Origin: a virus
Reading direction: 5' to 3' (one strand)
Length of the DNA: 64,000 nt
Virus record (IMG/VR): IMGVR_UViG_3300044631_000551
Location: 20,439 to 84,438 of that record
The notes beneath the pieces were generated by a model. That model was not told the origin of the DNA. It made no database searches and worked only from the letters and a program-made list of their open reading frames with translations. How positions within the stretch are numbered: position 1 is the first letter of the stretch; each line of letters opens with the position of its first letter. A program made the translations under genes and the position numbers. Positions 1,528-21,755 of the stretch are shown here, piece after piece.

Positions 1528-4500
1528 TTACAATCCAACTTCTGTGCCTATTACTGCTGGTCCTTGATCCGGAAGTCCAGTCTGCGGATTGACTTGTGAT
1601 ATAGTCATAGGATTGGTTGCGTCGTAGAACAAATAATATCCAGCACCAATTATAGATGGAATATATCTCAAGGCTCCTTCTGGGATTCCAGCGCCAACAT
1701 TTCCTGGTCCTGCTTTTAGTGGTCCATCAAGAATAGTAACGACTGGAATCTGAGTTGGATCGCATGGTTTACATGGGTCTAGCGAAGTGCTATTAGTAAA
1801 GCTAATTGTTTTCTCTGTTGTAGCAAGAACAACCGCAGCAGAACTATAATATGTAGCTGTTACAGTAAGAGTTGTATTTGCTGGATTGCTCCAACCAATT
1901 CCTACAGAGCGACCGCCATTAGTTAATGCTTGGTTGCTTGTAATTGAAGCAGTACCGACGTTTGCTGCAGAGAAATTTGTACCAGACAAGCTTCCCGATG
2001 GAGCATTACCAACTACGCCAATAGTCACATAGCCACCAGTTACACGATTGGCTGTCATATCGCCACGGAATTCTAGGTTGACCCAGTTGACTGCTTTTGC
2101 AGTTGAAGCGTCTGACATGTAGTAGCTGTTGTTGTTTCCAGATATTACATTTAACATGGTTAGTTTTAGGTCACCATCAGATTCAAACTTAGTCAACTGA
2201 ACTGGTTTTACAACTTCAGAAACAGTACTATTATTGCCACTAACTTTTAGTTTTACATAAACTGTTTCAACCATTGAAGGGAATGTAAATGTAATGTCTG
2301 ATGGATTTTGTACTGAAGAATTAGCAGAACTTGGTGTTACACAACCAGTTGAACATTGAACGAAAGTCCATTCCCATGCAACAGGTGCTTCAAGAGTTGA
2401 ACCTTCTGGAGCAATAACACCTCTATTTGTTCTATCAATAAATGATAAAGTATGAGAAGTTCCATCTTCGACAACCAATGTTCCGACAACATCAAAGTCA
2501 GCAACAATTAATGGAGTCTTTGGTACTAGTGGTGGTTCAACAACTGGATTTCCTGGAACTTCTTCGACAAGAGAAATTACAAATGCGCCAAGGGATCTTG
2601 AAGAAGGAGTGGCTGGAGATACGGTGTCAGTTACAGACAACACGTGGTTTCCTAGCGATAGATTTCCTGGAATTGTAGCAACTGCATACAACACGCCAGT
2701 TGAATCAGAATATAGAGCTTCGCCTTGTAGACCATCAACAGTTACATTTGAAGCGATCTTAGTTACACCATACGCGATATTTCCTGGCGTTGCCAACGAA
2801 GAATAGTCAACGTTATCTATGCTAATGTAATGTCTAGTCGATGGTTTTAATCCGCGAGCAATTAACTTAACAGTTCTATTCATAGGATAGATATACTGTT
2901 CGTTGTATTGAGTGGTCGTAGGTGTAACCGTCATAGTTGTTACAGGATATTTTAACGATTGCTCAACGTCAGCAAATCTTGTCTTATCTAGTTCTACAGC
3001 ACCGCTATCATATTTGTCATTAGGATCAATTGCGATTTCGCGAGTGGCATATTCCTGAGAAATAAACTTAGTATTTGCATCGTAGCCAACAGTTACAAAG
3101 TTCTTACTGTAGCTGATGTTATTAGCTGTATCTCTAATTACTGAAGTAGATGTGCTATTTGCATTGTTAATTTCAATCTCAACTGTTTCAGTAGAAACCA
3201 TTGGACGACCGATACCAGTTGTTGGGTCGATCACGATTGTGTGCTCTGCATCACCTAGTCTTGCTAGGTTATGATTATCAAATGGATCAACGAAGAAACC
3301 ATTTTTGAAGCGATCTACGCCATTAGTATCTGGGATATTTAACTGAGTAGCTTTTTGCTCTAAGCGAGTTAGAGTGGTAAAATACTCAAGAGAAGAAACG
3401 CGCTGGTCGATAGCAGCAATATCTTTCATTCTATAACGCTTATTAGAAATAGGCGAGATATTCATTGTGTAAGGCGCATTAATTACGTACTGCGATTCAG
3501 CAACAGTCAATGAAGGATATGGTGGAATATAAGTTGTCGCTACAACCATCTGGTCGTCAGACTCTGCTCTTGGCGCACGAGGGACTATTGCAGATTCGCC
3601 CTCTACAACTTCAAATACACCCTTAGAAGTTAGAACAACAACATCACGACGAGGTAGATAATAAGTTAGATTACATTCAAAGTTTTGACCAGGATATGGA
3701 TTGTAATCAGTTGTACCTGAATTAAACAGTGTCGCTGGCGGTGGGTTGACTGTTGTTGCCGAAGCATTAGAAGTCAAGTTCGCTGTATTTGCTCGATATG
3801 GACGGAAATCAATAGAATCACGCAAAGCAAAACGACGGTTGCGTGTAGCAGAATAGTAAGAAGGAATTTCCCAAGTCCTTACATACTGCGAAGTGTTTGC
3901 GCCGATAGCGTCATTTACGCTATAAGACTCAACCGAGAAGAAGCCTTTACCAAGAGTAGCATTAGCAGCGAAACAATCAAAGTCAACGATTAGATACGAG
4001 TTTGAAAGATTAGCAGTAGATTTAGGATATAGAACTGCGTGGTCATAGTGCGTATCACGCTGACCGAAATCGTATGTAAAGAATTGTTTGATATCGCTAA
4101 CAGCTTGATTGTTATCTGAGTTTAAATCTTTAGTTTTTGAGACGCGGTTAATTTTAAGCACGTCTGGAACACCAAGATTAAATCCATAAGGATGAACGAT
4201 CTCGTAAGTATTAGCTGATAGACTTGTAGAGAATGCAGTATCTACAGAAAGTTGGGTTGTGTTGGCGATAGCTGTAACTTTCTTAGTTTCGCCATTTGCT
4301 TTAATATAGTTACCAACCTTGAAATCGGTACTAAATGCAGTAGAAGTACCAGTTACAGTATTTCCTGAAGTAGCAATAGCACCAGCAAGCGAACCATTGT
4401 AGAAACGGACTAATTGGTTGCGTTTAATTTCTTTGGCGATTGGGCGAGCGTTAGACTTTCTAGCGTAAGCATTAACTTTAATAGCTGTCGCGCCAGAAGC

Positions 4501-7011
4501 AGTAAAGTCAGGTCCAAGATCAACAGTTAAACTTTGTAGAGTTGAGTTTAACGCAATTGTTCTGTTGCTTGTAGACAAACTAATAATAGAACCTTTCTCG
4601 TGGAAACGAGCATAGGTATTTGCTACAGCAGCTGCACCGTGAGCAGTTCTTGTTGTCATCGTAGTATTACTTACGATCGAGTTTACGATTACTGCAGTAT
4701 TTCCTGCTACTGTAATCTTCTCACCTACAACAAAATCACGCTGGAAGAATGTGCTAGTTCCAGTAATGGTGGTTGTAGTAGAGTTAGCAACAGAAACTGT
4801 ACCACTTAGATTTACAGTCGTTAGAGCTGCACCAGTAAGAACGATATCTACTTTTTCTTCAGAGAAATCGGTGTTATCTGAGAAGCCAAAGAACGAACCA
4901 CCGTCGGTTAAGCTGATAGTTGTAGTACCATTGTTTGCTAGGGAAGCATCAATAGAAGCATTGTAATAGAACTCGGTATCAGAATCGCCTTGTTCATTTC
5001 TTAGATCTCTGACAGCGCGATTCGTTAAACCAAATACGAGGGCTGTGTAGTCAGTAGCTTCTAGCTTAGGATCGACAAACCCATCAATAGTTAAGTTTAC
5101 AGTTAAGCCTGTACCCGAACCGCCTGTAACAGCAGCGCCAGACAATGTTGGATTGGCAGTATATTTACCACCCTGAATTAGAGAAATAGATGTGACGTTG
5201 CCTGAAGCATTGTTTACCGTTATAAGTGCAGTCGCAGAGTCACCAAGACCACCACTTACTGTAACAATGTCACCATTTGTATATCCACCACCGTTGGCAG
5301 AAATAGTAGCAGTGTAAACAGAGTTAGCGAGTTGCGAAACAGCAACGTCAGCAAACGCATTAGCAGTATTGGCATATACAATAGAACGAACTTTATTAAA
5401 GTTTTGATTTTCGTTCATCTTGACATTAAACAGATACATGTTGTATTGTGCTAATGGAGCACCTTTGTCTGCGCTGTCGGTATCATAAACTAGGTTACGA
5501 ATATTAGCTGTACCAATAACAGTACCAGTAGCAGAACTTGTTGAATTCAAGCTGGCAGTAATAGCATTCTGGAATGAATCATATAGATTTACTGAAGCCG
5601 ATTGGTCAGCTGGGAAATATCCACGAAGTTCTTCAACAGGAATGTAGCTACCATAATTCATTGAAACAATTTGTTGTACTGGTGATTCAGTATCAACACC
5701 GCGACGAGAACTCAATACTTGGTTTGACTTAAAGTCAACAGCATTACCACGAACATATGCTTTACCAGCACCGATGTCATAGTAGAATTCTTGAGTATTG
5801 GCGGATGGTTTAGAAGTAATGGTAAAGTCTTTTACAGTATAGTGACCTGACTCATCATATGTACGCTGAGCCATTTCTTGGCCAACTGCGCCACCAACAG
5901 AAGTGTTATTCCATCTTAGAATATTGTCTGGACCAAATTCAGCCACAGCAAAGAATACTTCAGTATTAGGAAGTGCAGTTTTCGCATAAGAAACGAAATT
6001 AGTTTCTAGTTTTAGTCGGTGTGCGCCAGGAGCTGCGCCATTTGATAAGTCAGCAGAGTTATCATACAACGAAGAATCAGCAAATTCGTCTACTATCGTT
6101 TCGGTTGTTTCCATACCAACGATAATACCATTAGCAGCAGAAGGACCACCAGCCGAAGCATTTAGAATTAGAGTTTGTGTATCTGTCTTTACGAAGAAAC
6201 CTTTTTGATACACAATACCTTCTGAGACGCTTAGAGCATAAGCATTACCAACGCCAGTATATCTGTTATCACCAGGAGTTGTAAGAATAGTTGTGTTTGC
6301 TAGATTATTGCTAAAATTAAGCTCGATTGCAGATACAGTCGTACTTACAGATGTGTTAGATAGAAGTTGAATTGTTTCTCCAACAGTAAAATCTTTTCTA
6401 ACATTAGTAATAGTAATTTCGTTAGAGGTAGTATTGGCAGCTGTGATTAAACCACGAGCATCAGAAGTTGTACCTCTAATACGACCATTTACAGCAAAAT
6501 TGGTAGCATTAGCAACAGTAATGACTGATGTTCCGAGATAAGATTTATCTTCGCCATAAATTACAATAGATTCGCCTTCTTGGAATCCGCTAATACCGTT
6601 CTTACCAGTAGAAGTATATTTTACAAAAAACTTTGATGGTTCTGCGGATGCAGCAAAGCCAAGTTCGCCTTTTAGAATTCTAGCTTGAACGCCAGAGTTA
6701 GCGCCATAAAGAATAGCGCCAACATAAGAAGTGTTAGAAGCATTAAATGTAGTATTAGAATCAGGAACAGCAACATATACAGCATCAGGAATTACTGTCG
6801 GAGCACAGCCCTTAATGATACTGCCTTGCTTGAACACGCCATCGCCAAATCGTTCGATTTGGTTTTGTAGAATAGTTTGAAGCTGAGTTAATTCTCTAGC
6901 TTGAACTGGAAATGATGGTCTAAACAATACTCGATGAAACTTTTTGGTTTCATCAAAATCGTCATAGTATGGTGCCGACGCTAGAGTTGTGTTTGCAATA
7001 TCAGCTGACAT
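1528..7011 (-). CDS. DUF4815/VrlC-like baseplate-associated structural protein (N-terminal part) with PKD/Ig-like C-terminal domain
   Basis: APYYDDFDETKKFHRVLFRPSFPVQARELTQLQ N-terminus, APGAHRLK, RTYDESGHY, DRFKNGFFVDPF; PKD-like ADF..SFIDRT..WEWTF..SSVQNP. Confidence 0.8.
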   Translation of the reverse strand: MSADIANTTLASAPYYDDFDETKKFHRVLFRPSFPVQARELTQLQTILQNQIERFGDGVFKQGSIIKGCAPTVIPDAVYVAVPDSNTTFNASNTSYVGAILYGANSGVQARILKGELGFAASAEPSKFFVKYTSTGKNGISGFQEGESIVIYGEDKSYLGTSVITVANATNFAVNGRIRGTTSDARGLITAANTTSNEITITNVRKDFTVGETIQLLSNTSVSTTVSAIELNFSNNLANTTILTTPGDNRYTGVGNAYALSVSEGIVYQKGFFVKTDTQTLILNASAGGPSAANGIIVGMETTETIVDEFADSSLYDNSADLSNGAAPGAHRLKLETNFVSYAKTALPNTEVFFAVAEFGPDNILRWNNTSVGGAVGQEMAQRTYDESGHYTVKDFTITSKPSANTQEFYYDIGAGKAYVRGNAVDFKSNQVLSSRRGVDTESPVQQIVSMNYGSYIPVEELRGYFPADQSASVNLYDSFQNAITASLNSTSSATGTVIGTANIRNLVYDTDSADKGAPLAQYNMYLFNVKMNENQNFNKVRSIVYANTANAFADVAVSQLANSVYTATISANGGGYTNGDIVTVSGGLGDSATALITVNNASGNVTSISLIQGGKYTANPTLSGAAVTGGSGTGLTVNLTIDGFVDPKLEATDYTALVFGLTNRAVRDLRNEQGDSDTEFYYNASIDASLANNGTTTISLTDGGSFFGFSDNTDFSEEKVDIVLTGAALTTVNLSGTVSVANSTTTTITGTSTFFQRDFVVGEKITVAGNTAVIVNSIVSNTTMTTRTAHGAAAVANTYARFHEKGSIISLSTSNRTIALNSTLQSLTVDLGPDFTASGATAIKVNAYARKSNARPIAKEIKRNQLVRFYNGSLAGAIATSGNTVTGTSTAFSTDFKVGNYIKANGETKKVTAIANTTQLSVDTAFSTSLSANTYEIVHPYGFNLGVPDVLKINRVSKTKDLNSDNNQAVSDIKQFFTYDFGQRDTHYDHAVLYPKSTANLSNSYLIVDFDCFAANATLGKGFFSVESYSVNDAIGANTSQYVRTWEIPSYYSATRNRRFALRDSIDFRPYRANTANLTSNASATTVNPPPATLFNSGTTDYNPYPGQNFECNLTYYLPRRDVVVLTSKGVFEVVEGESAIVPRAPRAESDDQMVVATTYIPPYPSLTVAESQYVINAPYTMNISPISNKRYRMKDIAAIDQRVSSLEYFTTLTRLEQKATQLNIPDTNGVDRFKNGFFVDPFDNHNLARLGDAEHTIVIDPTTGIGRPMVSTETVEIEINNANSTSTSVIRDTANNISYSKNFVTVGYDANTKFISQEYATREIAIDPNDKYDSGAVELDKTRFADVEQSLKYPVTTMTVTPTTTQYNEQYIYPMNRTVKLIARGLKPSTRHYISIDNVDYSSLATPGNIAYGVTKIASNVTVDGLQGEALYSDSTGVLYAVATIPGNLSLGNHVLSVTDTVSPATPSSRSLGAFVISLVEEVPGNPVVEPPLVPKTPLIVADFDVVGTLVVEDGTSHTLSFIDRTNRGVIAPEGSTLEAPVAWEWTFVQCSTGCVTPSSANSSVQNPSDITFTFPSMVETVYVKLKVSGNNSTVSEVVKPVQLTKFESDGDLKLTMLNVISGNNNSYYMSDASTAKAVNWVNLEFRGDMTANRVTGGYVTIGVVGNAPSGSLSGTNFSAANVGTASITSNQALTNGGRSVGIGWSNPANTTLTVTATYYSSAAVVLATTEKTISFTNSTSLDPCKPCDPTQIPVVTILDGPLKAGPGNVGAGIPEGALRYIPSIIGAGYYLFYDATNPMTISQVNPQTGLPDQGPAVIGTEVGL

Positions 7012-7023
7012 TAATTCGCTCCG

Positions 7024-8745
7024 TTAGAATCTTATTACTAATTTAACTTGTTCTTTATTTGAAGTAGAACGAGAAACTTCTTGAATATTTTGAATGTATA
7101 AAACATCACCAGAATAGATAGCTAAGTTTGCAGCAGTGTTTCCACTAGAAGTGATTCGTTGCGCGCCATTAGCACCTTGTAGAACTTCACCAGACTGGAA
7201 CGTACCATTGACGCCAGTTAGCAACATGACTGATGAGTTAGCAAATGCGTATCTACCAGAAGCGGTAGAAATACTACCTGTTACCACTTCACCATTTGCA
7301 TAAGTTCCTGTTCCAGAACCTGTTATATTTATAGTGCATAATTGATTAAATGTGTTTGCAGCATATAAAGTTCCGTTAGAATATGTCGGATTTTTTAACA
7401 AACCAACAGTTCTATAAGTCACGTCTGCGTTAAAAGTATTGGCTCCAACGTACTCGTCAAACAAACAATGTACGCCAAGTGCATCACAATATAATTCGTC
7501 ATAAACATCACTACCGTGTCCGCCATCTGGAGAGATAATTGCTCTCAATTCACCGCCAGAGCCAAGGTTGGTTCCAGCAGTTACAGTGACAGTAGCATCT
7601 TTATAGCCAGTACCATATTGTGCCATGTTTACGCGAGTAATTGCGCCAGTTGTTGAATTCATTACAGCATATGCAGAAGCATTACTACCAGTTCTAGAAG
7701 TAATTGTTAACAATGGACCAATAGAATATGTACAGGTATTTGATAAGAATCCAGCTGGGAACGAGTCAGTAATTGTAATACCATATGCTGTATTAGATGT
7801 ACCAATCTTACGAACGAATGTATTTCCGCTAGTATTTGTGACAGTAATCGCACTATCTCTGTAATAGTTCGAAGTTGTATTAGCTGTGTTTGCAATAATT
7901 ACTACATTGTTATTGCCAGTCGTTGTAATCGCACCAGTATGATTCGGATAATCTGCACCAGAAGCTTCAACAATAATATGAAATATTCCGCCATCTACTG
8001 CTGCGTTAGCAACGATCGCGTCTGGTGTTACAGGGATATATTCGTTTGTTGTAAACTTTAGATTATCAGATTGAGCGACATTATACATGTACATCCACTT
8101 GTAATTGTCTGCTGTTTGAAATGGCGTTCCAATGTAGGTCGCGCTCTTTGTTGGTTTTATAGTAGAATTTGCGCCACCATTGTTTGAAATACATTTGAAC
8201 ACGTCACGTGTATCAGTAATAACAAAGAAGTCAGTATCTTTTAATTCAGCCTGATCGTCATATTGAGTGTAAACTGTGCTAGTGGTCCATGTGTATTTTG
8301 GAACCATTCGTTTGAAGTTGGCTTTTTTACCAAACATCATTTCGTTCCAGATATCATAGAAGGAATCAGTTTCTGACTCTACTTCAGCTGAAACATCGCT
8401 CGTTGGATATTCAGATTGTTTACCAACAAACACATAAAAGTTATTTTCGTTTTCGAAAGAAACGTTGACTCTTAGACCAGTACCACTCCCGCCAGTCGCG
8501 TAGATGGCAGAGTTAGGAACATTATTGTTATAAACACCTTTGGTGACTAGGGTAGCTGCTGTAACATTGGCGGTGGCATTGACAGTGACTGTAAACGTAG
8601 TTCCACCGAATAAGCTAACTGTTTCTGCGTTGACATAACTGCCACCAGCTGCGCTAATAGCGAGAGCAGAAACTTTTTGATTATCAACAGAATTGATAAA
8701 CTCATCTATTGTATTTCTTTTGAATTTAGATAATAGCTTACTCAT
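7024..8745 (-). CDS. gp8: baseplate wedge subunit gp8-like
   Basis: VFKCISNNGG..STIKPT..TADNYKWMYMY, IISPDGGHGSD, C-terminal SGDVLYIQN..EQVKLVIRF; position downstream of gp7. Confidence 0.8.
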   Translation of the reverse strand: MSKLLSKFKRNTIDEFINSVDNQKVSALAISAAGGSYVNAETVSLFGGTTFTVTVNATANVTAATLVTKGVYNNNVPNSAIYATGGSGTGLRVNVSFENENNFYVFVGKQSEYPTSDVSAEVESETDSFYDIWNEMMFGKKANFKRMVPKYTWTTSTVYTQYDDQAELKDTDFFVITDTRDVFKCISNNGGANSTIKPTKSATYIGTPFQTADNYKWMYMYNVAQSDNLKFTTNEYIPVTPDAIVANAAVDGGIFHIIVEASGADYPNHTGAITTTGNNNVVIIANTANTTSNYYRDSAITVTNTSGNTFVRKIGTSNTAYGITITDSFPAGFLSNTCTYSIGPLLTITSRTGSNASAYAVMNSTTGAITRVNMAQYGTGYKDATVTVTAGTNLGSGGELRAIISPDGGHGSDVYDELYCDALGVHCLFDEYVGANTFNADVTYRTVGLLKNPTYSNGTLYAANTFNQLCTINITGSGTGTYANGEVVTGSISTASGRYAFANSSVMLLTGVNGTFQSGEVLQGANGAQRITSSGNTAANLAIYSGDVLYIQNIQEVSRSTSNKEQVKLVIRF

Positions 8746-8754
8746 TTATGTACC

Positions 8755-11700
8755 TTATGGGTTTGTGTTTAGCACTGTGTCAATGACAGTGTCAAAAACG
8801 GTATCTGTATCAACAACTGTTACATAAGCAGTGGCTGACGAAGTATTTATAGCGGTTGATGTAGACTTCTGAGTATTAAACTTAGTAGAAATCGCTGTTG
8901 TATATTGCGTAGCATTCAACACAGTTCCAGTCAAATTAAACAGCGTATCTGTATAGAACTTCGTATCAAAAGTTGTATTTTTAGTTGTTGATGTTTCTTT
9001 GTTGGTAGAAATTGTAGTATTTAAAGCTGTATCATAAGTGGTTACAATAGTTGTTAGGCTCTTAGTCTGAGTTGCGTAAGTCGTTGATTTACTGGTATCA
9101 GTATTATACGCTGTTGTTATTGTCGTATCATAAACTGACGATGTCGATTTACTTGTGGCAGTAGACTTAGTTGTATCAGTATTGAATACTGTAGAAGTAG
9201 AAGCAACAGTTGCGCTGATCTTGGTGGTATCAGTATCAAATACCGTGCTGGTAGACTTGGTCGTAGCGGTATCAATAGCAGTATCTGTATTAAATACAGT
9301 CGAAGTCGACTTCGAAGTCGCAGTCGCTATATTTGTAGCGATCTTAGTATCAGTCGACTTGCTTGTTGATGTCGAATATGCAGTAGCAGTATCGTAAATA
9401 GAAATTGTTTCATATACTGTCGAGAAAGTTGAATCAGTTTGAACAATCGTTGCTGTATTTATGGTAGTATCAGTAGACTTCGATGTTCCTTTCGTAGTTT
9501 CGAACGTAGTTCCTTTACTTGTTGTAGTTAAGAATACTGTATCAAATAATGACTGAGTATTGTAAACTGTAACATATGATGTTAATGTATTGAATACTGT
9601 GCTGGTTAGCGCAGAAGTTGAAGTAGACTTGCTCGTTGATCCAGTTGTGCTAATGGCGGTGTCGCGCGCAGTATTTGTTTGGAACAATGTAACTGTATCG
9701 AATATAGTTGATGTTGCAAACGTTGTATTAAACGCAGTCGTAGTATCAAACACAGAAGAAGTTGATTTACTTGTTCCAGTTAGCGCAGAAGTATCAAATG
9801 TCGAAGCCGTGGCGAACACTGTATTGAATGCGGTTGTGGTATCAAACACAGTAGCATAAGTTGTTAGCGTCGCATAGATTGTAGCGAAACCAGTCGTAGT
9901 CGCGTATGCGGTAGTACGAGAAGTGGCAGTCGCTTTGTTAGTATCATATGCAGTTTCAAACGCAGTCGAAGTATCGAACACGCTAGTTGTTGCCTTAGAT
10001 GTGCTAACTGTGGTATCGGTTGATTTGCTGGTTCCAGTAGACTTAGAAGTTGAAGCAGCTGTTTCTGTCGCTTTAGAAGTAGAAGTCGCTTTAGAAGTAG
10101 AAACCACAGTATCAAACGTTGTATCATACGTGGTCACATAAGTCGTAGTTGTATCAAACAACGTCGTGGTAGATCTAGAAGTACCAATTGTGGTATCTGT
10201 TGATTTGCTGGTAGAAGTCGACTTAGAAGTCGAAGCAGATGTTCCAGTTAAATTCGAAGTAGCAGTAGACTTAGATGTAGAATTTGTAGTGTCAAACGTA
10301 GTATTATATGCAGTTACAAATGCTGTCGTTGTATTAAACACAGTCGTAGTCGACTTAGAAGTACTCCTACCCGTTTCTATTGTAACCTCTTCTTTAGTTT
10401 CTGCATCGATAAAAGTGGTATCATATGCAGTAACATAAATCGTAGTTGTAGATTTAGAAGTACTCGTTGCTTTAGAAGTCGTCGCACTTGTTGCTGCAGA
10501 TGTATTAAACGTAGTGTTAAACGTTGTTGTCGTGTTAAACGCGGTAGTTGTATTAAACAACGTTAAGTATGCAGTTGTAGTGTTAAACACAGTCGTAGTG
10601 GCATACGCAGTATCATATAAAGTCGAAGTAGACTTAGAAGTCCCTGTCGTCTTAGAAGTTAATTTAGACGTAGAACCTGTAGTATTAAACGTTGTATCAA
10701 ACGTTGTTGTAGTATTAAACGTTGTTGTGGTGTTAAATACAGTCAAGAAAGTTGTAGTCGTATCATATGCAGTTGTTGTTGCGTATGCTGTATTGAACGT
10801 CGTCGTCGTGCTTCTCGAAGTACTGGTAAATCTATTAGTACCAATTTGTGTTAGATACGTCGTTGTTGTATTAAACGCAGTAGAGATCGTGGTGTCAGTA
10901 GATTTTGACGTTTCTTTGGTTGTCTCTGTGGCTTTACTTGTTTGAGCACTGGTGCTTGTAGACTTAGTGGTCGAACCAGTAGTATTAGTTTCAATTGTTG
11001 TACCATACACAGTAGTTGTATTAAACAACGTGGTCGTTGATTTTGAAGTCGCCGTTGCTTTTGAAGTGGCGCCAGTCGTATCAGTTGACTTACTTGTTGC
11101 TGTTAAAGCAGAAGTTTGTGTTGAGAAAACAGTTTGATATGCTGTATCAAACGTAGTATTATATGTTGTAGAAGTAAACGCACCGCTACCAGTAGTTGTT
11201 AGTTTACTTGTTGCCGTTGAAGCAGAAGTTTCTTTACTTGTAGAAGTATCGCGTTCGGTAATCTTTGAAGTATTAGTGCTAAAGAACGTATCAAAAGCAG
11301 TATCATATTTCGTAGTGTAAGAAGTCGTCGTAGCATACGCTGTCGAGGTATCGTAAACCGAGTTAGTTAGACGCTTAGTAGAACGATTTGTGTCTGTATA
11401 AACCAACGTTGCAGTCGCAATAGTTGTGTCGGTATTAAACACAGTAGTGGTCGCAATGGCAGTATCAAATATGGTCTGAGTATTAAACACAGAAGTTGTA
11501 GATTTACTGGTAGCAGTTACATATGCTGTCGTTGTGTTAAATGTACTTGTTGTAGATTTATTAGTCGATGTAGCATATGCAGTTATAGTGTCAAAAACTG
11601 ATGACGTAGATTTATTTGTTGCAGTGGCAAATGTCGTTGTTGTATCGTATGCAGTCGTGGTCGTTTTACCAGTACCATATGCAGTAGATTTTGACGTTTG

Positions 11701-14700
11701 AGTTGCAAACTTAGTATCAATCGTTGTAGAAGTATACAACGCAGTCGCTGTTAAAAAATTAGTGGCAAATGCTGAATCGGTGTACTTAGCAGTTCTATAA
11801 TTTGTATCAGACAAATATTCAGTTGTAGTGTTTGTAGATTTTGAAGTACCTGTTTCCGTTGAAACTGCAGTTGAATATGCTGTACCAAGCGCAGTTTGCT
11901 TAAATGTATCTGTCGACTTAGAAGTATCTTTATTAGTTGCATAAGAAGTTGCAACTGTTGTCAATACTTCGCCAGTTGTAAAATATGTCTGAACATCTGT
12001 TGGACGCGACGTCGCAACCTTAGTAATGATATCAGTTTGTTTATTTGTCAGCGTAGTTACATCTGTGTCTAAAGTCGTGTCTTTGAACTTGGTATTGTAA
12101 AAAGTTGCAAACTCAGTTTGGAACGAAGTATCATAAATCGTGTTGATAGTAGTCAACAGATTTGTCATAAATGTCGTGCCAGTAAACTTCTGCGTGTCGA
12201 CTGTGGTATCTTTTGAAGTAGCATACGCAGTTGTAGTCGCAATCTTTGTTGCGTACGCTGTTAAGAATACAGTTGTTGTTACGCCAGCAGTTCGAGTGGC
12301 TCTGGTCGTCGCATATGCAGTTTGAACTATTGTACCAGCACCACTGTCTGTAGAGATCTTAGTATCAAACGTGGTGGTCGTATTTGTAAAGTAGCTGGTA
12401 ACAGTAGCAGTTACTGGTAGAGTATCAATTGTTATGGCTGTATCTACTAACGTATTTGTGTCATACGTTGTTGTTGTGGACACACTAGTATCAAATTTTG
12501 TAGTACGAGTTGTATCAATCGTAGTATCAGTATTGTAATTGGTAGTGGTATTAATTGTTGTATTGACTAGAGTTCCGCCACTGGTATTAAAAATTGTATC
12601 GTATGTGGTAGAATAACTTGAGTTGATAGCTGTGCTTCTAGACGTGGCAAAAGCAGAAGTTTCTGATACTGTAACTTCTTTTGAACAAGAGTAAGACCAG
12701 ACTCCAGGAGGAGCGTCATTAAGGAAAATACAATCATCAAATGTAAATCCTTTCGCAGCAGCATCCGCTATCGCAGCATTTTGATTGACAAATCCAGTTT
12801 CACTAGCGGAAGTTGTAAATGTTGTATCTGCAGTTATACTTGTATCAAACACAGTTGTTGTGAAGAAGTTAGTTACAACAGATGTTTGGAAGTTAGTAGC
12901 AGCAACACCGCTTAGAGTACCGTAGCTGGTAGCAGTTGTTTTAGATGTGCCAGTCGCATACGCAGTAGCAAATTTAGTGCTTCTACTAGTATCATATACT
13001 GTAGCTGTACTCTTAGTCGTAGCTGTATCTCTAGCTTCTTGGCCAGCATACGTTGTGCTTGTATAAACAATTGTTCCTACAGCAGTATTAATTGCAGTGG
13101 CAGTAGTAATTAACGTGCTAAATGCAGTTGTTGTAGAGGTCGAAATTGCTGTTTCGAATGTGGTATCGATAGCAGTTTCGCGCTTTGTCAAGAACGAAGT
13201 TCCATATGCAGATGTGGTTAGATACTCCGTCGCAATTGTAGTCGCGCCAGCAGTTTCTGTAAATCTGCTTGTTGTAACACCAGTAGAAGTCGTAAGTGTT
13301 GTAGAAGTAGAAGTTAGATACTGAGTTTCTAGATAATCAATTAGAGCTTCTAGGGTGGTTCCACGAGAAACAGGAACAGATTGAATTACAGTTCTACCAA
13401 ATCTTTCCATACCAGCTGGATGCCACAAATCACGAAGAATGCTAGAATACTTGTTAAACGCAGTAACAGCTTGAACTTCGTATGAATATTCTTGGTAATA
13501 ATAATTGTCGTGAATATACTTGTCAGAGTTTAAGAAACCGCGAGTAGATTTAAAGAATCCTTCGCCCTTACCCTGACCAAGATAATCAATTGTACCTGTT
13601 GCAACATGCGAAGCATTCGTTACACTTGTTAGCGAAACAGTCGTATTGTTAGTGTAGCCAACACCAGAATTATAGATGGATACAGTAGAAACAGCACCAG
13701 GACCACTACCAGAAACGCCAGCAATATTTGCATTGAAACCGAGGAATCCGCCAGCTCCATCAGACAGACGAAGCGGATAAATTAAATTATCGACGATTGC
13801 TACGTTTACGTTTGCTTGATAACCACCACCAGGATTAATATTTGTTAATGTAGCAATTGTACCATAAGTGTAGGTGTTTAATGTAAAAATACCATTAAAC
13901 GCAGTCAAATATGTTGCAGATGTATTTGATGAAAATGCAGTATAAGCTGGGGCTGCAGCATTAATTTGAATACTAAGCGCGTTAGTAATTGGCGTAGAAG
14001 TCAAGTCAATTGTGCTTGTATTGCTTAATGATCCAACATCAAAAGACGCAACGCTGGTTGGCGTTTCGCCTAGTGATGGTGTAACTGTTTCAGAAGCAGT
14101 TAATGTAAAACCTGTACCACCATTTCTAATGTCAAAAGTTACAACACCTTGTAGTCTTTGCAGACCAGTTACAATGGCTTGACCATTTACACCATCACCG
14201 CCAACAACGTTGACGAGTTCACCAAGAGAAAAACCAGGAGAGCTACCGAGAACTTGAATGCTAGAAAGTGATCCGTAAACTTTTGGACTATCTGTAACTT
14301 CGATGCCCAAGTCGTCTATTACATCTAAATTGATAATTTCTTCATCTGCCGCAAATGTTCCGACAATGTCAGTAATATACAAAATATCGTGGCGCTGATT
14401 ACCAGTTACAAATACTTTATAATCATCTACGAAAGCTGTCGCCCCAGAAATGCGACCAGTAATCGTTTTACCGATATATGATGCAATGTTTGCATTATAT
14501 TCTAGCTCCAAGTATCTTGGAACAAGCCATTGTGAATCAGATGCACGGATTACGTCTGTTCCAGGAGAATAGACGTTAATGTCTTCGTTGAATAAAACGC
14601 GGAATAATAATTCTAAACCACGTTCTGTGCCTTTAGAAGAGTATAATTCTTTGATGTGTTTTTGTAGAAGACGTTTATCTGCAGCAACATCAAGCGGAAT

Positions 14701-14925
14701 ACCATGCATGTATTTTTTACGAAAATAATCTACGAACTCATCAAGAGTAGTATCAATATCGCGCCAAGTTGGTAGTCGACGAGCGTCGTAGATTACTTGA
14801 TTAGTTTGTTCTAACCACTCAAAATATGCTCTAACAAATGCAACGAAAGTTGGTCCTTCTTCTCGGTAGATAGAAGGAAACTGACTTTCAATGAGTGGAG
14901 AAATTAACTTCTCAAGGTCTTTCAT
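8755..14925 (-). CDS. gp7: baseplate wedge gp7-like protein with ~1500-aa Thr-rich self-complementary extension
   Basis: N-terminal ~530 aa has FVRAYFEWLE, KELYSSKGTE..LFRVLF and HDNYYYQEYSYEV..HPAGM motifs; lies between gp6 and gp8; remainder is T-x-(F/Y/K)-x repeats. Confidence 0.75.
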   Translation of the reverse strand: MKDLEKLISPLIESQFPSIYREEGPTFVAFVRAYFEWLEQTNQVIYDARRLPTWRDIDTTLDEFVDYFRKKYMHGIPLDVAADKRLLQKHIKELYSSKGTERGLELLFRVLFNEDINVYSPGTDVIRASDSQWLVPRYLELEYNANIASYIGKTITGRISGATAFVDDYKVFVTGNQRHDILYITDIVGTFAADEEIINLDVIDDLGIEVTDSPKVYGSLSSIQVLGSSPGFSLGELVNVVGGDGVNGQAIVTGLQRLQGVVTFDIRNGGTGFTLTASETVTPSLGETPTSVASFDVGSLSNTSTIDLTSTPITNALSIQINAAAPAYTAFSSNTSATYLTAFNGIFTLNTYTYGTIATLTNINPGGGYQANVNVAIVDNLIYPLRLSDGAGGFLGFNANIAGVSGSGPGAVSTVSIYNSGVGYTNNTTVSLTSVTNASHVATGTIDYLGQGKGEGFFKSTRGFLNSDKYIHDNYYYQEYSYEVQAVTAFNKYSSILRDLWHPAGMERFGRTVIQSVPVSRGTTLEALIDYLETQYLTSTSTTLTTSTGVTTSRFTETAGATTIATEYLTTSAYGTSFLTKRETAIDTTFETAISTSTTTAFSTLITTATAINTAVGTIVYTSTTYAGQEARDTATTKSTATVYDTSRSTKFATAYATGTSKTTATSYGTLSGVAATNFQTSVVTNFFTTTVFDTSITADTTFTTSASETGFVNQNAAIADAAAKGFTFDDCIFLNDAPPGVWSYSCSKEVTVSETSAFATSRSTAINSSYSTTYDTIFNTSGGTLVNTTINTTTNYNTDTTIDTTRTTKFDTSVSTTTTYDTNTLVDTAITIDTLPVTATVTSYFTNTTTTFDTKISTDSGAGTIVQTAYATTRATRTAGVTTTVFLTAYATKIATTTAYATSKDTTVDTQKFTGTTFMTNLLTTINTIYDTSFQTEFATFYNTKFKDTTLDTDVTTLTNKQTDIITKVATSRPTDVQTYFTTGEVLTTVATSYATNKDTSKSTDTFKQTALGTAYSTAVSTETGTSKSTNTTTEYLSDTNYRTAKYTDSAFATNFLTATALYTSTTIDTKFATQTSKSTAYGTGKTTTTAYDTTTTFATATNKSTSSVFDTITAYATSTNKSTTSTFNTTTAYVTATSKSTTSVFNTQTIFDTAIATTTVFNTDTTIATATLVYTDTNRSTKRLTNSVYDTSTAYATTTSYTTKYDTAFDTFFSTNTSKITERDTSTSKETSASTATSKLTTTGSGAFTSTTYNTTFDTAYQTVFSTQTSALTATSKSTDTTGATSKATATSKSTTTLFNTTTVYGTTIETNTTGSTTKSTSTSAQTSKATETTKETSKSTDTTISTAFNTTTTYLTQIGTNRFTSTSRSTTTTFNTAYATTTAYDTTTTFLTVFNTTTTFNTTTTFDTTFNTTGSTSKLTSKTTGTSKSTSTLYDTAYATTTVFNTTTAYLTLFNTTTAFNTTTTFNTTFNTSAATSATTSKATSTSKSTTTIYVTAYDTTFIDAETKEEVTIETGRSTSKSTTTVFNTTTAFVTAYNTTFDTTNSTSKSTATSNLTGTSASTSKSTSTSKSTDTTIGTSRSTTTLFDTTTTYVTTYDTTFDTVVSTSKATSTSKATETAASTSKSTGTSKSTDTTVSTSKATTSVFDTSTAFETAYDTNKATATSRTTAYATTTGFATIYATLTTYATVFDTTTAFNTVFATASTFDTSALTGTSKSTSSVFDTTTAFNTTFATSTIFDTVTLFQTNTARDTAISTTGSTSKSTSTSALTSTVFNTLTSYVTVYNTQSLFDTVFLTTTSKGTTFETTKGTSKSTDTTINTATIVQTDSTFSTVYETISIYDTATAYSTSTSKSTDTKIATNIATATSKSTSTVFNTDTAIDTATTKSTSTVFDTDTTKISATVASTSTVFNTDTTKSTATSKSTSSVYDTTITTAYNTDTSKSTTYATQTKSLTTIVTTYDTALNTTISTNKETSTTKNTTFDTKFYTDTLFNLTGTVLNATQYTTAISTKFNTQKSTSTAINTSSATAYVTVVDTDTVFDTVIDTVLNTNP

Positions 14926-16718
14926 TAGATGCGAATTCCAGTTACAACGACAGAAATATCTTCGTTATCAATTAGTAATATTTTATTTGTTAGCGTATCA
15001 ATATCAGCATTTTCAGTTCTTGCGTATATTTTAATACTGTCAGTATCATAAGAATCAACAATTAAATTTGTAATTTTAATTTCGCCTGTTTCATAATTTA
15101 CTGTACCGACATTATTATTTAGAACTGTAGTATTACCATTATTTATGGTGTAAATATAAAGAGTTCCAACACCATTGTCATTAATATAAGCAGTATATTT
15201 GTCATAAACAAATGCGGTTGAAGATACGATTGGTTCATGGCCAACTGGTAAAACATATCTTATATCTTCATCATGTAATCGATTTTCAAAACTCCAGTTA
15301 GAAGAAAAGCTAACAAGAGGAGTAGGAGTTATGCGCTTAGAAATACGAACTTGTGTATCGTTTGAAATGATTGATACATCAGCAGCATCAATAGCAGCAG
15401 ACAGTTTAGAGAACCTTAAATCAGAGCCAAAGTCTGATAGATAACTTGTATTAAAAGATGTGATGGCAGTAATAACATTTGACACCAATTGAGATGGTGT
15501 TTTTGTTGTGGCGCTTATGTTGTACTTGACGCGAGAAATAATATCAAGATACAAATACTCAGGATCAACTATTAATGGTTCAATCGATACTGGTGTCTTA
15601 TCTTCTAAGAAAGTCAAGATGCTTTGTTTTATGCTAGAAGAAAGCATTTCTCCGCCAACTGGTTTAGCAGAGATAATAACTTTTCCATATAATTTTGGAA
15701 CTGACTCTTCGCCACCGTAGGCGATTACAGTTTCAATCGAAGGGTAGTTTGCCTTGATTAAAGAAATAAAGTCTTCAGCAGTAACAGCTCTGTTCTGCGC
15801 TGTAAATCCGCGAATCGCATTATAACGAATTGATTCAGCATCTTCCGCTTGCGAGCCACCAGCTGAAGTTTCGGTAGTAGATAACAAAAATGTATTTGAA
15901 GAAAAACCATCAGCAGAACTGATAGAAGTAAACGTACCGCATCCGTTACCATCTTCGCCTGCAGTTTGTCTGTATGTAACTAAAACAATATTACCTGCTG
16001 TCAATTTCTTACTGGAAACACCGTTACCAAACGAAACAGCATACTTAAATTCGTCAGCACCCTGAACAAAAAATACTGTGCTATTTGCATTCAAACCAAA
16101 CAAGTCAGTGGCTTTGCTCCACGCCACTGCTGTGGTATTTGTTGATGAGTTTCTTATTTCAACAGTAATAGAAGAAGTATCTAATGTATTAGAAGACAAA
16201 GTAAATGTTTGGTTGTTCGCAGAGTTCGCAACAAATGCTTCTGTTTTAATGCTGCCTTCGTGGAAAGAAACATTAGAAACGGTGTAGTTGTTTGAGCGAT
16301 ACAAAACAATAGTTTCGTCTGTTGAAAATGTGTATGTTTCATTAGCATCATTAGTACCTCTGATGCTGTAATACTGTGGCAGAGTAATTGTGTCTGGAGT
16401 ATTTGCTGGCTGCGCAGTAACAGTGACATCAATTGTTGAAGCTGCGCGCGATCTTGGCGTATAGTTTAATTCTTTAGCGTGAGATACAATTGAGTCGCGA
16501 AGTTGCGCGGTATCCAAAAACATCTCACTGCCAATCATGTTGAGATACATGGCGTTGTGATAGGTATTGTATGCTAATAAGTCCAACAGAACTGATAAGT
16601 TAGAACCTTCAAAATCATAGTCCCTAAACTCAGTTTGCTGACTTAAATATGTCTTTAGACTTTCTTTGTATGCAGCAAAGTCTAATTCAGTGGTGGTGAG
16701 AAATCCTTGATTCGACAT
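14925..16718 (-). CDS. gp6: baseplate wedge subunit gp6
   Basis: ELDF..K.SLK.YL..Q.EFRDYDFEGSNLSVLLDLLAYNT, AQNRAVTAEDF motifs. Confidence 0.92.
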   Translation of the reverse strand: MSNQGFLTTTELDFAAYKESLKTYLSQQTEFRDYDFEGSNLSVLLDLLAYNTYHNAMYLNMIGSEMFLDTAQLRDSIVSHAKELNYTPRSRAASTIDVTVTAQPANTPDTITLPQYYSIRGTNDANETYTFSTDETIVLYRSNNYTVSNVSFHEGSIKTEAFVANSANNQTFTLSSNTLDTSSITVEIRNSSTNTTAVAWSKATDLFGLNANSTVFFVQGADEFKYAVSFGNGVSSKKLTAGNIVLVTYRQTAGEDGNGCGTFTSISSADGFSSNTFLLSTTETSAGGSQAEDAESIRYNAIRGFTAQNRAVTAEDFISLIKANYPSIETVIAYGGEESVPKLYGKVIISAKPVGGEMLSSSIKQSILTFLEDKTPVSIEPLIVDPEYLYLDIISRVKYNISATTKTPSQLVSNVITAITSFNTSYLSDFGSDLRFSKLSAAIDAADVSIISNDTQVRISKRITPTPLVSFSSNWSFENRLHDEDIRYVLPVGHEPIVSSTAFVYDKYTAYINDNGVGTLYIYTINNGNTTVLNNNVGTVNYETGEIKITNLIVDSYDTDSIKIYARTENADIDTLTNKILLIDNEDISVVVTGIRI

Positions 16719-16719
16719 T

Positions 16720-17133
16720 TTATCTTATCCTGTTTAGAAGGAACTCTACAGTTCCTACTTGTTCGTTTCTTATTAGTGAGAAAGCAATGCTCACAAAATA
16801 CGTGTTTCTGTCATAATCTGGCGTAACATCAACTGTATCAATATTGATTCTTGGTTCGTACTGTTTAAGCGTCTGAATAATTGTTTCGCGCAAAGCAATT
16901 GTGGTTAGTGGCGTCATTTGCTCAAACAACAACTCGCTAACACCAGCGCCAAGATTTGGATCTAATAACCTTTCATATTTATCAGTCATAATTAGATTCT
17001 TTACAGATCTCTTTGCTGCGTCTAGATCTGTGAGCCTAACAACATCATTTGTAATGACGTTTCTGCTAAACGATGCGCTAAAATCGCTATACGTCGGTGG
17101 CGCTTTGATTGGATTTTCTTTACGGAAAGCCAT
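16720..17133 (-). CDS. gp25: baseplate wedge subunit gp25
   Basis: YSDF..SF, SVKNLIMT..ER..P.LG..LLFE, YEPRI motifs. Confidence 0.9.
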   Translation of the reverse strand: MAFRKENPIKAPPTYSDFSASFSRNVITNDVVRLTDLDAAKRSVKNLIMTDKYERLLDPNLGAGVSELLFEQMTPLTTIALRETIIQTLKQYEPRINIDTVDVTPDYDRNTYFVSIAFSLIRNEQVGTVEFLLNRIR

Positions 17134-20391: not shown

Positions 20392-21755
20392 CGTGCACCA
20401 TTTATCAAATCTTTTTCATATGCGTCTTTATACAAATCTACATAAGTTTGAAATATAGTACCTTTGATATTATGTTTTACAGCACCAACTATGAAGTCGC
20501 CAGATTGTCTATTTGAATTTTCGTCTTCTGTAATACCACTCTTAGCAGGAACATTTAGATTTAAGATATCTCCTGGTTTGATGTAAGGATTACCATAGAC
20601 TTCAATTGTTATTTTGGTTTGTTCTAACAATGCTCTTTGCGCGCGAGCATAGAGATATTTTTCTTCTAAATAATCATCACGTTCCCAAGCATTTTCGGAT
20701 ACGGCAATATACGAAGCTGGTGTAAAATCATATTTTAATCCTTGTGGATTCAAATCGACATTAGTAGCAAACACTGGATATTTCGTATCAAACGCGCTGT
20801 TCTTGCCTAGCAAGAATATGTTTTTACTATCTTTTTCATATTCAAATGTTTTGGTCGGTGTTTTAACTTCTCTGTTTATTAAATCGATTAACATTATCTC
20901 ACTTCTAAGCACACCAGAAGCAATCAAATCAAAGTAGTTTGAGTGTTCATATTGAGAAAGATACAATACTCGGAAGTAATCTTTTTCAACACTAGCATCA
21001 AGATCTGTATTGTTTCGTTCTGGATAAAACGTATATCTGAATGCTCTTTGTTTGTTGGCGTCGCTCGCAATAGATCTAGCAGTTTTTAACTTAAAACCCT
21101 GATAATCTTGATAAAAGAAGTATGTGCTATCATCAGATTGAGAAGATAACGACTGAGACAATAATCTAGATATAGCGTCGAATGGCTTTATCTGATTGAA
21201 GATAAATCCATTTTTAATGATATTCTTGCTGCTAATCCAGTCATCCCCAGTGCCAATTTTTTCTCTATCTGGCGGATCCTTTTTAACAAACCTAGACTCA
21301 ACGATTTGCTTGATGACATCCGAAGGTGTGCCTTCTGGATAAAACTTAATCAGTGGCCACGCGTTCGTTACAGCAGGAAAAGTATACGCAACAATATCAT
21401 ATACCTTTTCTTTTTGTGTTGTGGTTTGAATTGAATTTTCTATGTTTGTAATATAAAAATTCAATATAATTTTGTTTTCTATAGGATCATCTTGAAATTT
21501 GAATAGTGTTACTTCTATGACACTACCGAGAGATAAAAAGCCGTCGTCGACCAAATTTATACCATCTACCAACGATGCTTCTAAACTAATAGAATATCTA
21601 AGCAAAGATTGTTTTAATGATATAGAATTTATAAGTGTAGCGATACCAACGCCATCTTTTACTGACCTATCTTTTTTCAAAACAACAGAATAGCTAAATT
21701 CATTTACTGTATTGCTATTTTGCACGATGAGATGTGGCTTCAAACTCGTATCCAT
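20388..21755 (-). CDS. baseplate hub protein (gp27-like)
   Basis: Upstream of gp5; YFFYQDYQGFKLK, VYGNP.IKPGDILNL, SGDFIVGAVKHNI motifs. Confidence 0.65.
   Translation of the reverse strand: MDTSLKPHLIVQNSNTVNEFSYSVVLKKDRSVKDGVGIATLINSISLKQSLLRYSISLEASLVDGINLVDDGFLSLGSVIEVTLFKFQDDPIENKIILNFYITNIENSIQTTTQKEKVYDIVAYTFPAVTNAWPLIKFYPEGTPSDVIKQIVESRFVKKDPPDREKIGTGDDWISSKNIIKNGFIFNQIKPFDAISRLLSQSLSSQSDDSTYFFYQDYQGFKLKTARSIASDANKQRAFRYTFYPERNNTDLDASVEKDYFRVLYLSQYEHSNYFDLIASGVLRSEIMLIDLINREVKTPTKTFEYEKDSKNIFLLGKNSAFDTKYPVFATNVDLNPQGLKYDFTPASYIAVSENAWERDDYLEEKYLYARAQRALLEQTKITIEVYGNPYIKPGDILNLNVPAKSGITEDENSNRQSGDFIVGAVKHNIKGTIFQTYVDLYKDAYEKDLINGAR

Follow-up and report, generated by a model that had tools for sequence, protein, structure and literature searches.

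The needle of gp37 of bacteriophage T4 (PDB 2XGF) is a homotrimer of six intertwined strands with His-coordinated iron, in which the chain runs out, turns at a distal binding tip and returns. In the Gram-positive adhesins of the antigen I/II family, an alpha helix is paired with a polyproline helix: two distant segments of one chain associate over their length into a long and slender stalk, which holds a globular domain at its far end. On a smaller scale, cross-strand aromatic-Lys/Arg and Thr-Thr pairs stabilise antiparallel strands in designed as well as natural beta-hairpins. Here we consider a reminiscent arrangement in a baseplate wedge protein of 2056 amino acids, which is encoded in a 64,000-nucleotide stretch of viral DNA (positions 20,439 to 84,438 of IMG/VR record IMGVR_UViG_3300044631_000551; this whole stretch is called the window). 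Residues ~621-838 of the protein are a candidate for a fold-back stalk that carries a small two-cysteine knob. All features of the window described below are located on its minus strand.

The protein belongs to the gp7 wedge family. T4 gp7 (PDB 5hx2/5iv5), which is present in one copy per wedge, has 1032 amino acids, is matched only via its C-terminal third and does not have the Thr-rich C-terminal extension of 1517 amino acids (residues ~540-2056) that follows the wedge domain in the window protein. In this extension Thr strictly alternates with F, Y, V and I (539 Thr, 5 Pro, 40 Gly, 0 His and 2 Cys among 1517 residues). There is no sequence relation to T4 gp37, and the His-x-His metal sites of the latter have no counterpart, given that residues 540-2056 contain no His. 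Instead of a trimer, a ribbon of two strands with a Thr ladder would make up the stalk, gp7 being expected once per wedge. It differs from the antigen I/II stalks, to which it is equally unrelated in sequence, in that both segments are Thr-rich beta strands. Whereas the known beta-hairpin examples span 5-10 residues, one register would be maintained here over 53 pairs, and over more than 400 in a main hairpin further along the chain. Neither the 1517-residue extension nor the knob or the mirror code was found beyond the clade of the window and, with Arg replacing Lys, gp7 of Stenotrophomonas phage DLP6. Among the titles and abstract openings searched, no paper was found on a Thr-rich gp7 extension or on a two-stranded fibre of this type.

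Relatives of the protein fall into two clades. The close clade, known from IMG/VR contigs, comprises three full-length sequences, L002 (2259 amino acids), L006 (2399) and L008 (2432), and the partial L007, with 75-87% identity in the region. The divergent clade consists of L020 (997 amino acids) and the ENA protein P0002 (1308 amino acids), with 49% identity. New in the present analysis are a statistical test of the side branch with a matrix trained on other residues, the finding of a conserved, confidently folded knob with an invariant Cys pair, and the paired insertions and deletions (indels) that provide evidence for neighbouring branches.

Mirrored Arms around a Thr-Poor Island

The upstream arm comprises residues 621-673 (12907..13065), with a core of residues 632-668 (12922-13032). 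The downstream arm comprises residues 786-838 (12412..12570), with a core of residues 791-827 (12445-12555), and ends at TLP (P837). A first-pass annotation of the sequence had placed a complementary hairpin at 12445-13032, which are the outer ends of the core arms. The eight pairs that it listed between the key residues, with the spacing 6,6,4,4,4,6,6, are all exact: Y668-I791, K662-Y797, Y656-I803, F652-R807, R648-F811, Y644-V815, K638-Y821 and R632-V827 all satisfy i+j=1459.

Mirrored matches were scored with a pair matrix of five residue classes (Thr, small, aromatic, basic, aliphatic), for the training of which only the main hairpin was used, residues 1255-1500 versus 1521-1766 (i+j=3021). 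Training on other residues of the same protein avoids circularity. The training set of 246 positions (492 symmetrised counts) contains 148 T-T counts and 29 aromatic-basic pairs (+3.25 bits), no pair of Thr with an aromatic residue, and Thr never opposite a basic residue. The preferences of the main hairpin and of the side branch agree with those by which antiparallel strands are known to be stabilised. With this matrix, the best mirrored partner of arm 632-668 among 1408 windows of the extension is 791-827 (score 15.3; runner-up 7.7), and the reverse test starting from 791-827 returns 632-668 as the best (15.3; runner-up 0.5). The ungapped mirrored stem reaches 621-673/786-838 with a score of 21.0, the top of the 1005 diagonals in residues 540-1060. 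When the units between large residues were permuted, an equally good stem, centred no more than 3 residues from the centre of the enclosed island, was obtained in 9 of 2000 shuffles.

Several simpler origins of the match were tried and rejected. Direct repetition of the arms is not the sole cause: in direct orientation, scored with BLOSUM62, 791-827 is only rank 8 for arm 632-668 (63; top 74), as against rank 1 of 1408 both ways for the mirrored match. An inverted repeat at the DNA level was discarded since only four short inverted pairs occur in 12300-13200 (14-22 nucleotides, 77-86% complementary), none linking the arms, and also because Thr codons cannot mirror to Thr by reverse complement. 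A regular beta-solenoid, antifreeze-like with T-x-T faces, was dropped as no constant coil period was found; autocorrelation of the Thr, aromatic and basic positions (residues 540-707 and 752-1060) is seen at lag 4 only (0.26-0.38), with no consistent longer period. Finally, a register based on Thr alone is uninformative, many 37-residue windows reaching 33-36 of 37 agreements owing to the repeats.

The arms are centred on the island but, other than had been described, do not flank it directly, each core arm being 39 residues away. The upstream inner flank (residues 674-700; 12826..12906) is aromatic-rich, contains no basic residue and lies outside the mirror code at i+j=1459; it may form a neck. 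It is opened by an irregular LSGVAA, which sits opposite the terminal SGG of the downstream inner flank (residues 754-785; 12571..12666), itself aromatic-rich. Taken together, the segments 674-707 and 752-785 contain hardly any basic residues and hence do not share the code of the arms.

The Two-Cysteine Knob

The island runs from SETGFVN to CSKEV and corresponds to residues 708-751 (44 amino acids; 12673-12804). The claim that it is the sole Thr-poor stretch of the 1517-residue extension is borne out by the lengths of the Thr-free runs: the two longest, of 23 residues (729-751) and 17 residues (711-727), are adjacent here, and the next has 8 residues. C732 (codon 12730..12732) and C747 (codon 12685..12687) are the only Cys in all 2056 amino acids and are both invariant in 7/7 homologues. 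The 14-residue gap between them is constant in both clades, despite a 6-residue insertion elsewhere in the knob.

This island is contained in the knob proper, residues 701-753 (12667..12825), for which AlphaFold2 predicts a strand (701-712), a helix (715-724) and a beta-hairpin (732-737/742-753) with loop APPG. The predicted local distance difference test score (pLDDT) of the knob blocks is 78-89 in the window model (residues 703-752) and 64-84 in the L020 model, and the strand-helix-hairpin order is the same in the models of both clades. The confident fold in two clades and the invariant Cys pair thus substantiate the earlier suggestion of a compact mini-domain at the island. In the window model, the strands 732-737 and 742-753, connected by a 4-residue loop, would set C732 opposite C747, an opposition that is read from strand boundaries and not from coordinates. 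The two residues probably form a disulfide once the virion is outside the cell. Through a split beta-alpha-beta arrangement, the strands 701-712 and 742-753, with which the knob begins and ends, probably lie side by side, and its two ends would thereby be brought together.

Identity to the window protein among the close full-length sequences is 66-79% for the knob and 74-92% for the arms. The ratio of non-synonymous to synonymous substitution rates (dN/dS) among four close full-length sequences is 0.16-0.40 for the knob and similar, about 0.12-0.43, for the arms. The core GF.N, A..DA, GF, DC.F.N, G.W, CSK is kept in the divergent clade, even at 51% identity (L020). Hypervariability of the tip, which had been put forward as a check, was thus not observed. 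Judged from these sequences, the knob is a conserved module, if somewhat more variable at its surface, and no diversifying receptor tip. The variable tip of the gp37 type, where variation goes with host range, has no counterpart among these sequences. We rate binding of the knob to a host surface as rather unlikely; it could also dock onto another part of the virion.

No structural relative of the knob was found among 48161 PDB chains at a Z of at least 5; the best match of the trimmed knob (Z 4.1 over 44 residues) is within noise, and this fold search is weak as evidence, the knob alone being confidently modelled. Comparison of the knob and its region with PDB sequences gave three matches, the best at E 0.29, and there were no families for residues 676-775 in Pfam or for residues 596-865 in NCBIfam. 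Among the shorter proteins in a set of 5.8 billion there were 82 candidates, none of which passed, and a search for proteins of near length with residues 600-860 returned P0002 only. A profile of 270 positions (alignment A2), searched against 1.84 billion representatives, gave one match, a 106-residue fragment at profile positions 222-252, in a search that also failed to return the cluster of the window protein itself. Composition filters probably keep such Thr-rich proteins out of the results of standard searches. Scans of further viral and metagenome contigs with A2 gave only the same two clades. Outside these gp7 proteins, no sequence relatives of the knob were found in the PDB, Pfam, NCBIfam and the protein sets searched.

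Conservation of the Mirrored Match

The homologous stem is the top diagonal in L002, L006 and L008 (23.6, 24.4 and 21.0), centred on the island each time; 1, 1 and 5 of 2000 shuffles, respectively, have an island-centred stem as good. The location of the island at a pairing centre in homologues, which the first-pass annotation had made a touchstone of the hairpin, is therefore seen in the window and in all three close full-length relatives, where the best proximal mirrored stem is centred on it.

In the divergent clade, the eight pairs have become Y-L, L-Y, Y-F, A-F, K-Y, F-Q, K-F and A-K. A register in which large residues stand opposite large residues persists in L020 and P0002, with register-only p values for an island-centred stem of 0.0235 and 0.0115, respectively, compared with a range from 0.0365 to 0.185 in the close sequences. 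Aromatic/basic complementarity, however, is lost in this clade, so that the register of the arms is kept across the clades but the code is not. Each divergent arm has the other at or near the top of its possible partners (ranks 4 and 1 of 501; 2 and 1 of 464). Between the clades, two pairs swap sides (F652-R807 to A-F and R632-V827 to A-K); in these sequences, such changes seem to fit the expectation of pairing, at an anecdotal level with two clades only. No indel of at least 2 residues is present inside the arms in any homologue, and changes of length in the side branch itself are limited to single residues at the irregular boundaries and the 6-residue insertion within the knob.

Paired Length Changes in Neighbouring Hairpins

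Indels were read from a MAFFT alignment (A1) without any pairing model. A small hairpin next to the side branch (residues ~839-885, turn DSGAG at 860-864; 12271..12411) changes the length of both its arms together. In L006 (locus 7575-13277) two insertions of 14 residues are found, one on each side of the DSGAG turn, of which the new upstream piece contributes F, F and Y and the new downstream piece K, K and R; the mirrored stem score is 20.0. At the same two places, L020 (locus 2604-4550) and P0002 have changes of -16/-14. Further cases are +4/+4 in L020 at 948/953 and +7/+8 in L006 at 930/953. In the main hairpin of L002, changes of +32/+32 and +14/+14 are found at the mirrored places 1440/1578 and 1457/1560; from i+j=3021, partners at 1581 and 1564 would be expected. 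These paired indels support the existence of fold-back units in this part of the sequence and are the strongest new evidence for them. The branched layout that had been proposed for the protein, in the manner of an RNA secondary structure, gains support from the same paired insertions and deletions in the arms of neighbouring hairpins.

L002 and L006 also share an insertion of 31 residues after window residue 901 (TSTTTKYDTTYSTISGTGIGSTTFETSKVTA...), with a Gly-rich centre. From its sequence, it looks like a whole extra small hairpin added as a unit.

Residues 557-588/989-1020 (13162-13257 and 11866-11961) form a candidate closing stem with a score of 20.7, inside which three units would fall: the side branch, the DSGAG hairpin and another hairpin with its centre near residue 952. 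A counterpart is within the top six diagonals of L002, L006 and L008, and the pairing constants 1577, 1608, 1647 and 1578 track the insertions exactly. This closing stem competes with 991-1026/2021-2056 (20.3).

In gp7 of the unrelated phage DLP6 (L001 5995-9861; 1288 amino acids), the matrix finds two nested stems, 716-814/1135-1233 (89.1) and 841-962/987-1108 (82.6). Because DLP6 uses Arg where the phage of the window uses Lys, these stems are an independent test of the matrix. DLP6 gp7 also contains a globular island of ~135 amino acids (~576-712) between Thr-rich segments. It was considered as a second case of an island at a tip and rejected, as the enclosing stem 535-559/764-788 (23.6) conflicts with a much stronger one.

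A Putative Fold-Back Stalk and Its Alternatives

We give even chances to the reading that residues ~621-838 are a fold-back stalk with a knob, a side branch of the Thr-rich extension. In such a stalk, the beta-strand arms 621-673 and 786-838 would run antiparallel and be matched residue for residue, in 53 pairs at i+j=1459. On one face Thr would be opposite Thr. Every second or third position on the Thr face would be large, an aromatic residue on one strand being opposite Lys/Arg or Ile/Val on the other. Past the matched Gly-containing irregularities (LSGVAA/SGG), the aromatic-rich segments 674-700/754-785 would form a neck of ~30 residues per strand with a different packing rule. The far end would be occupied by the knob, an alpha/beta module of ~50 residues (701-753) with the Cys pair in its beta-hairpin. 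The side branch would be one of several hairpins, with the DSGAG hairpin adjacent to it and the main hairpin of ~1000 residues further on. Six copies per baseplate would show a knob at ~25-30 nm from the base of the stalk, a distance estimated from ~3.3 Angstrom per residue. What we infer, and do not observe, is that the arms are in physical contact, that the Cys pair is bridged, how far the branch reaches and any role in binding.

It could be imagined, more tentatively and with a probability that falls clearly short of even, that the single chain of the whole gp7 extension folds after the pattern of an RNA secondary structure. Its beta-ribbon stems would be formed by a pairing code, and the closing stem 557-588/989-1020 would enclose branches that grow, shrink and appear by paired insertions, one of them (621-838) with a disulfide-locked knob. 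If such a layout is true, the topology of the protein is readable and can be engineered from the sequence through rules resembling those of base pairing.

If the arms do pair, this would be a fibre design absent from the titles and abstract openings searched: a thin two-stranded stalk with a readable pairing code, the length of which evolves by matched insertions. In that case the knob would offer the baseplate of a phage a natural site for display, with a bearing on host recognition in abundant freshwater myophages, and the stalk would be relevant to the design of rigid protein spacers with a programmable length. With ~220 residues, the side branch is the smallest self-contained unit of the design and hence the most practical piece with which to test the mirror code. 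If the arms are unpaired, what remains is an ordinary small conserved domain within a low-complexity region of a wedge protein.

A number of points weigh against a paired stalk. The pair matrix and the shuffle scheme are both our own constructs. The score of the stem alone is not significant, as 10% of 300 unit shuffles reach 21.0 somewhere in 540-1060, and it has rivals scoring 16-21 in this region, among them 652-671/812-831 (16.4) and 615-635/653-673 (16.2). A register-only matrix (Thr, small, large) gives p=0.0365 for the window and 0.185 for L008. Inside the stem, 674-707/752-785 is out of register at i+j=1459, with 2 of 34 positions T-T, 14 T-small and 1 aromatic-aromatic. At the key pairs the five close sequences hardly differ (only V815 changes, to L), and they cannot count as independent. 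The counterparts of the arms in the divergent clade score 1.1 in L020 and -2.7 in P0002, where 508 and 444 of 2000 shuffles are as good, and one of the pairs (Y-F) turns aromatic-aromatic. Pairing of the indels is not always neat, the insertions near the main turn of L008 summing to 225 on one side and 150 on the other. Given the conflict in DLP6, an island at a tip is, as far as these sequences go, no general rule. The strand boundaries 586-593/596-606 in the L020 model leave the two Cys two positions out of opposition. AlphaFold2, finally, leaves the arms unpaired, with short local hairpins at a pLDDT of 22-28, both for window residues 596-865 (6-row alignment; mean pLDDT 36.0) and for L020 residues 349-997 (649 amino acids, 7-row alignment; mean pLDDT 30.9); the Thr-rich parts have a pLDDT of 20-30 in both runs. 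Structure prediction had been put forward as a check of the side branch, and it gives the confident knob but no hairpin of the arms. The latter outcome cannot count as a refutation, because arm models at a pLDDT of ~25 are uninformative either way.

A linear beta-rich fibre or spacer that does not fold back is the first alternative. The island would be an inserted small domain or a hinge, and the mirror match would result from repeat ancestry and chance. The spacing 6,6,4,4,4,6,6 is palindromic, so that a head-to-tail alignment of the arms fits too, and in this direct alignment DTSRSTKF and DTTRTTKF are common to the arms. The R-x-T-K-F unit present in both is self-complementary when antiparallel (R648-F811 and F652-R807). 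The mirrored reading is favoured in that exactly one aromatic residue is found in 7 of 8 key pairs in the mirrored alignment versus 5 of 8 in the direct one. A linear fibre would furthermore agree with the equally strong stems that arise somewhere in a tenth of the shuffles, with the loss of the code in the divergent clade and with the lack of long-range pairing in the AlphaFold2 models, and the globular domain that follows the Thr region at the C-terminus of P0002 suits a distal binding domain. It has more difficulty with the superior rank of the mirrored over the direct similarity in both directions and with the centring on the island, which so few shuffles reproduce. Paired indels of equal length around turns are hard to account for without fold-back, and the strands 701-712 and 742-753 of the knob are predicted within one small sheet. 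We regard a linear fibre as improbable, if by no means negligible.

Mirrored arms could also pair between chains, through swaps among neighbouring gp7 copies or in a multi-chain beta assembly, in which case the knob would be at a junction and would not be a free tip. Antiparallel identical chains satisfy the mirror complementarity equally well, a lone two-stranded ribbon with both faces exposed would presumably be only marginally stable, and known fold-back tips such as that of T4 gp37 are trimers. The single copy of gp7 per wedge in T4 speaks for pairing within one chain, as do, more weakly, the paired indels that keep the arms of one chain equal, a swap tolerating these too; to an interchain arrangement we assign a small probability. 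Smaller still, and very low, is the probability that the Thr-rich region is mostly disordered or an O-glycosylated, mucin-like brush, with the knob as its one folded part and a mirror pattern that has no structural meaning. The low pLDDT throughout the Thr-rich parts and the 539 Thr among 1517 residues might suggest such a brush. Against it, Thr alternates strictly with F, Y, V and I, and Pro (5) and Gly (40) are scarce, as in beta strands and unlike mucin-like linkers; long indel-free mirrored registers exist both here and in DLP6; and the arms are under purifying selection according to their dN/dS. For the fold-back stalk with a knob, the balance is that the original observation is partly confirmed and its interpretation partly supported, with the aromatic/basic code visible in one clade only.

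The Wedge Domain and the Baseplate Setting

The gene is one long open reading frame (8755..14925), which encodes a conserved wedge domain (residues 1-515) followed by the Thr-rich extension. Residues 1-515 have 35-43% identity with annotated wedge proteins of Stenotrophomonas phage DLP6, Caulobacter phage Cr30 and Sinorhizobium phages of the phiM12 type. There are matches to Pfam PF23786 (33.9 bits; cut-off 27) and to phrog_17744 (8.2e-132), and residues 645-759 of T4 gp7 (5hx2_A) match residues 8-119 of the window protein (E 8.7e-4). Directly upstream in the direction of transcription is a gene of wedge family phrog_219 (14925-16718), preceded by one of gp25 size of wedge family phrog_261/43 (16720-17133). 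A gene of wedge family phrog_438 is located downstream (7024-8745). We take these neighbours to be gp6, gp25 and gp8, respectively, on the basis of their size and order and of the arrangement in T4. The gene order gp25 - gp6 - gp7 - gp8 is thus found here, with the gp7-like gene between the gp6-like and gp8-like genes, and tail-lysozyme and tube-cap genes are present further upstream in the T4-like baseplate module. Sequence and gene order both place the 2056-residue protein in the gp7 wedge family. In the part of the window that contains the Thr-rich part of the gene (8001-14000), the plus-strand skew of G over C is 0.13-0.23, because the Thr codons ACN sit on the minus strand; elsewhere it is near zero.

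In a further relative, L010 (IMGVR_UViG_3300008120_003957, 4184-9173), the wedge-domain and island matches are in different reading frames, and the extension read in frame contains 51 Cys and 7% Thr, suggestive of a frameshift or an assembly error in the gp7 gene of this contig.

P0002 does not contain the main hairpin. Instead, a run of seven Pro is followed by an extra C-terminal domain of ~340 amino acids (residues ~960-1308), which has no Pfam match at E 0.1 or better and in which five S/T-x-D/N-G-x-x-W motifs were recognised by eye. These presumably resemble the Asp-box (BNR) repeats of beta-propellers. Judged from its sequence, this globular domain looks like a likelier binding module than the knob. 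The window protein and L020 both stop just before the position where the poly-Pro run of P0002 starts.

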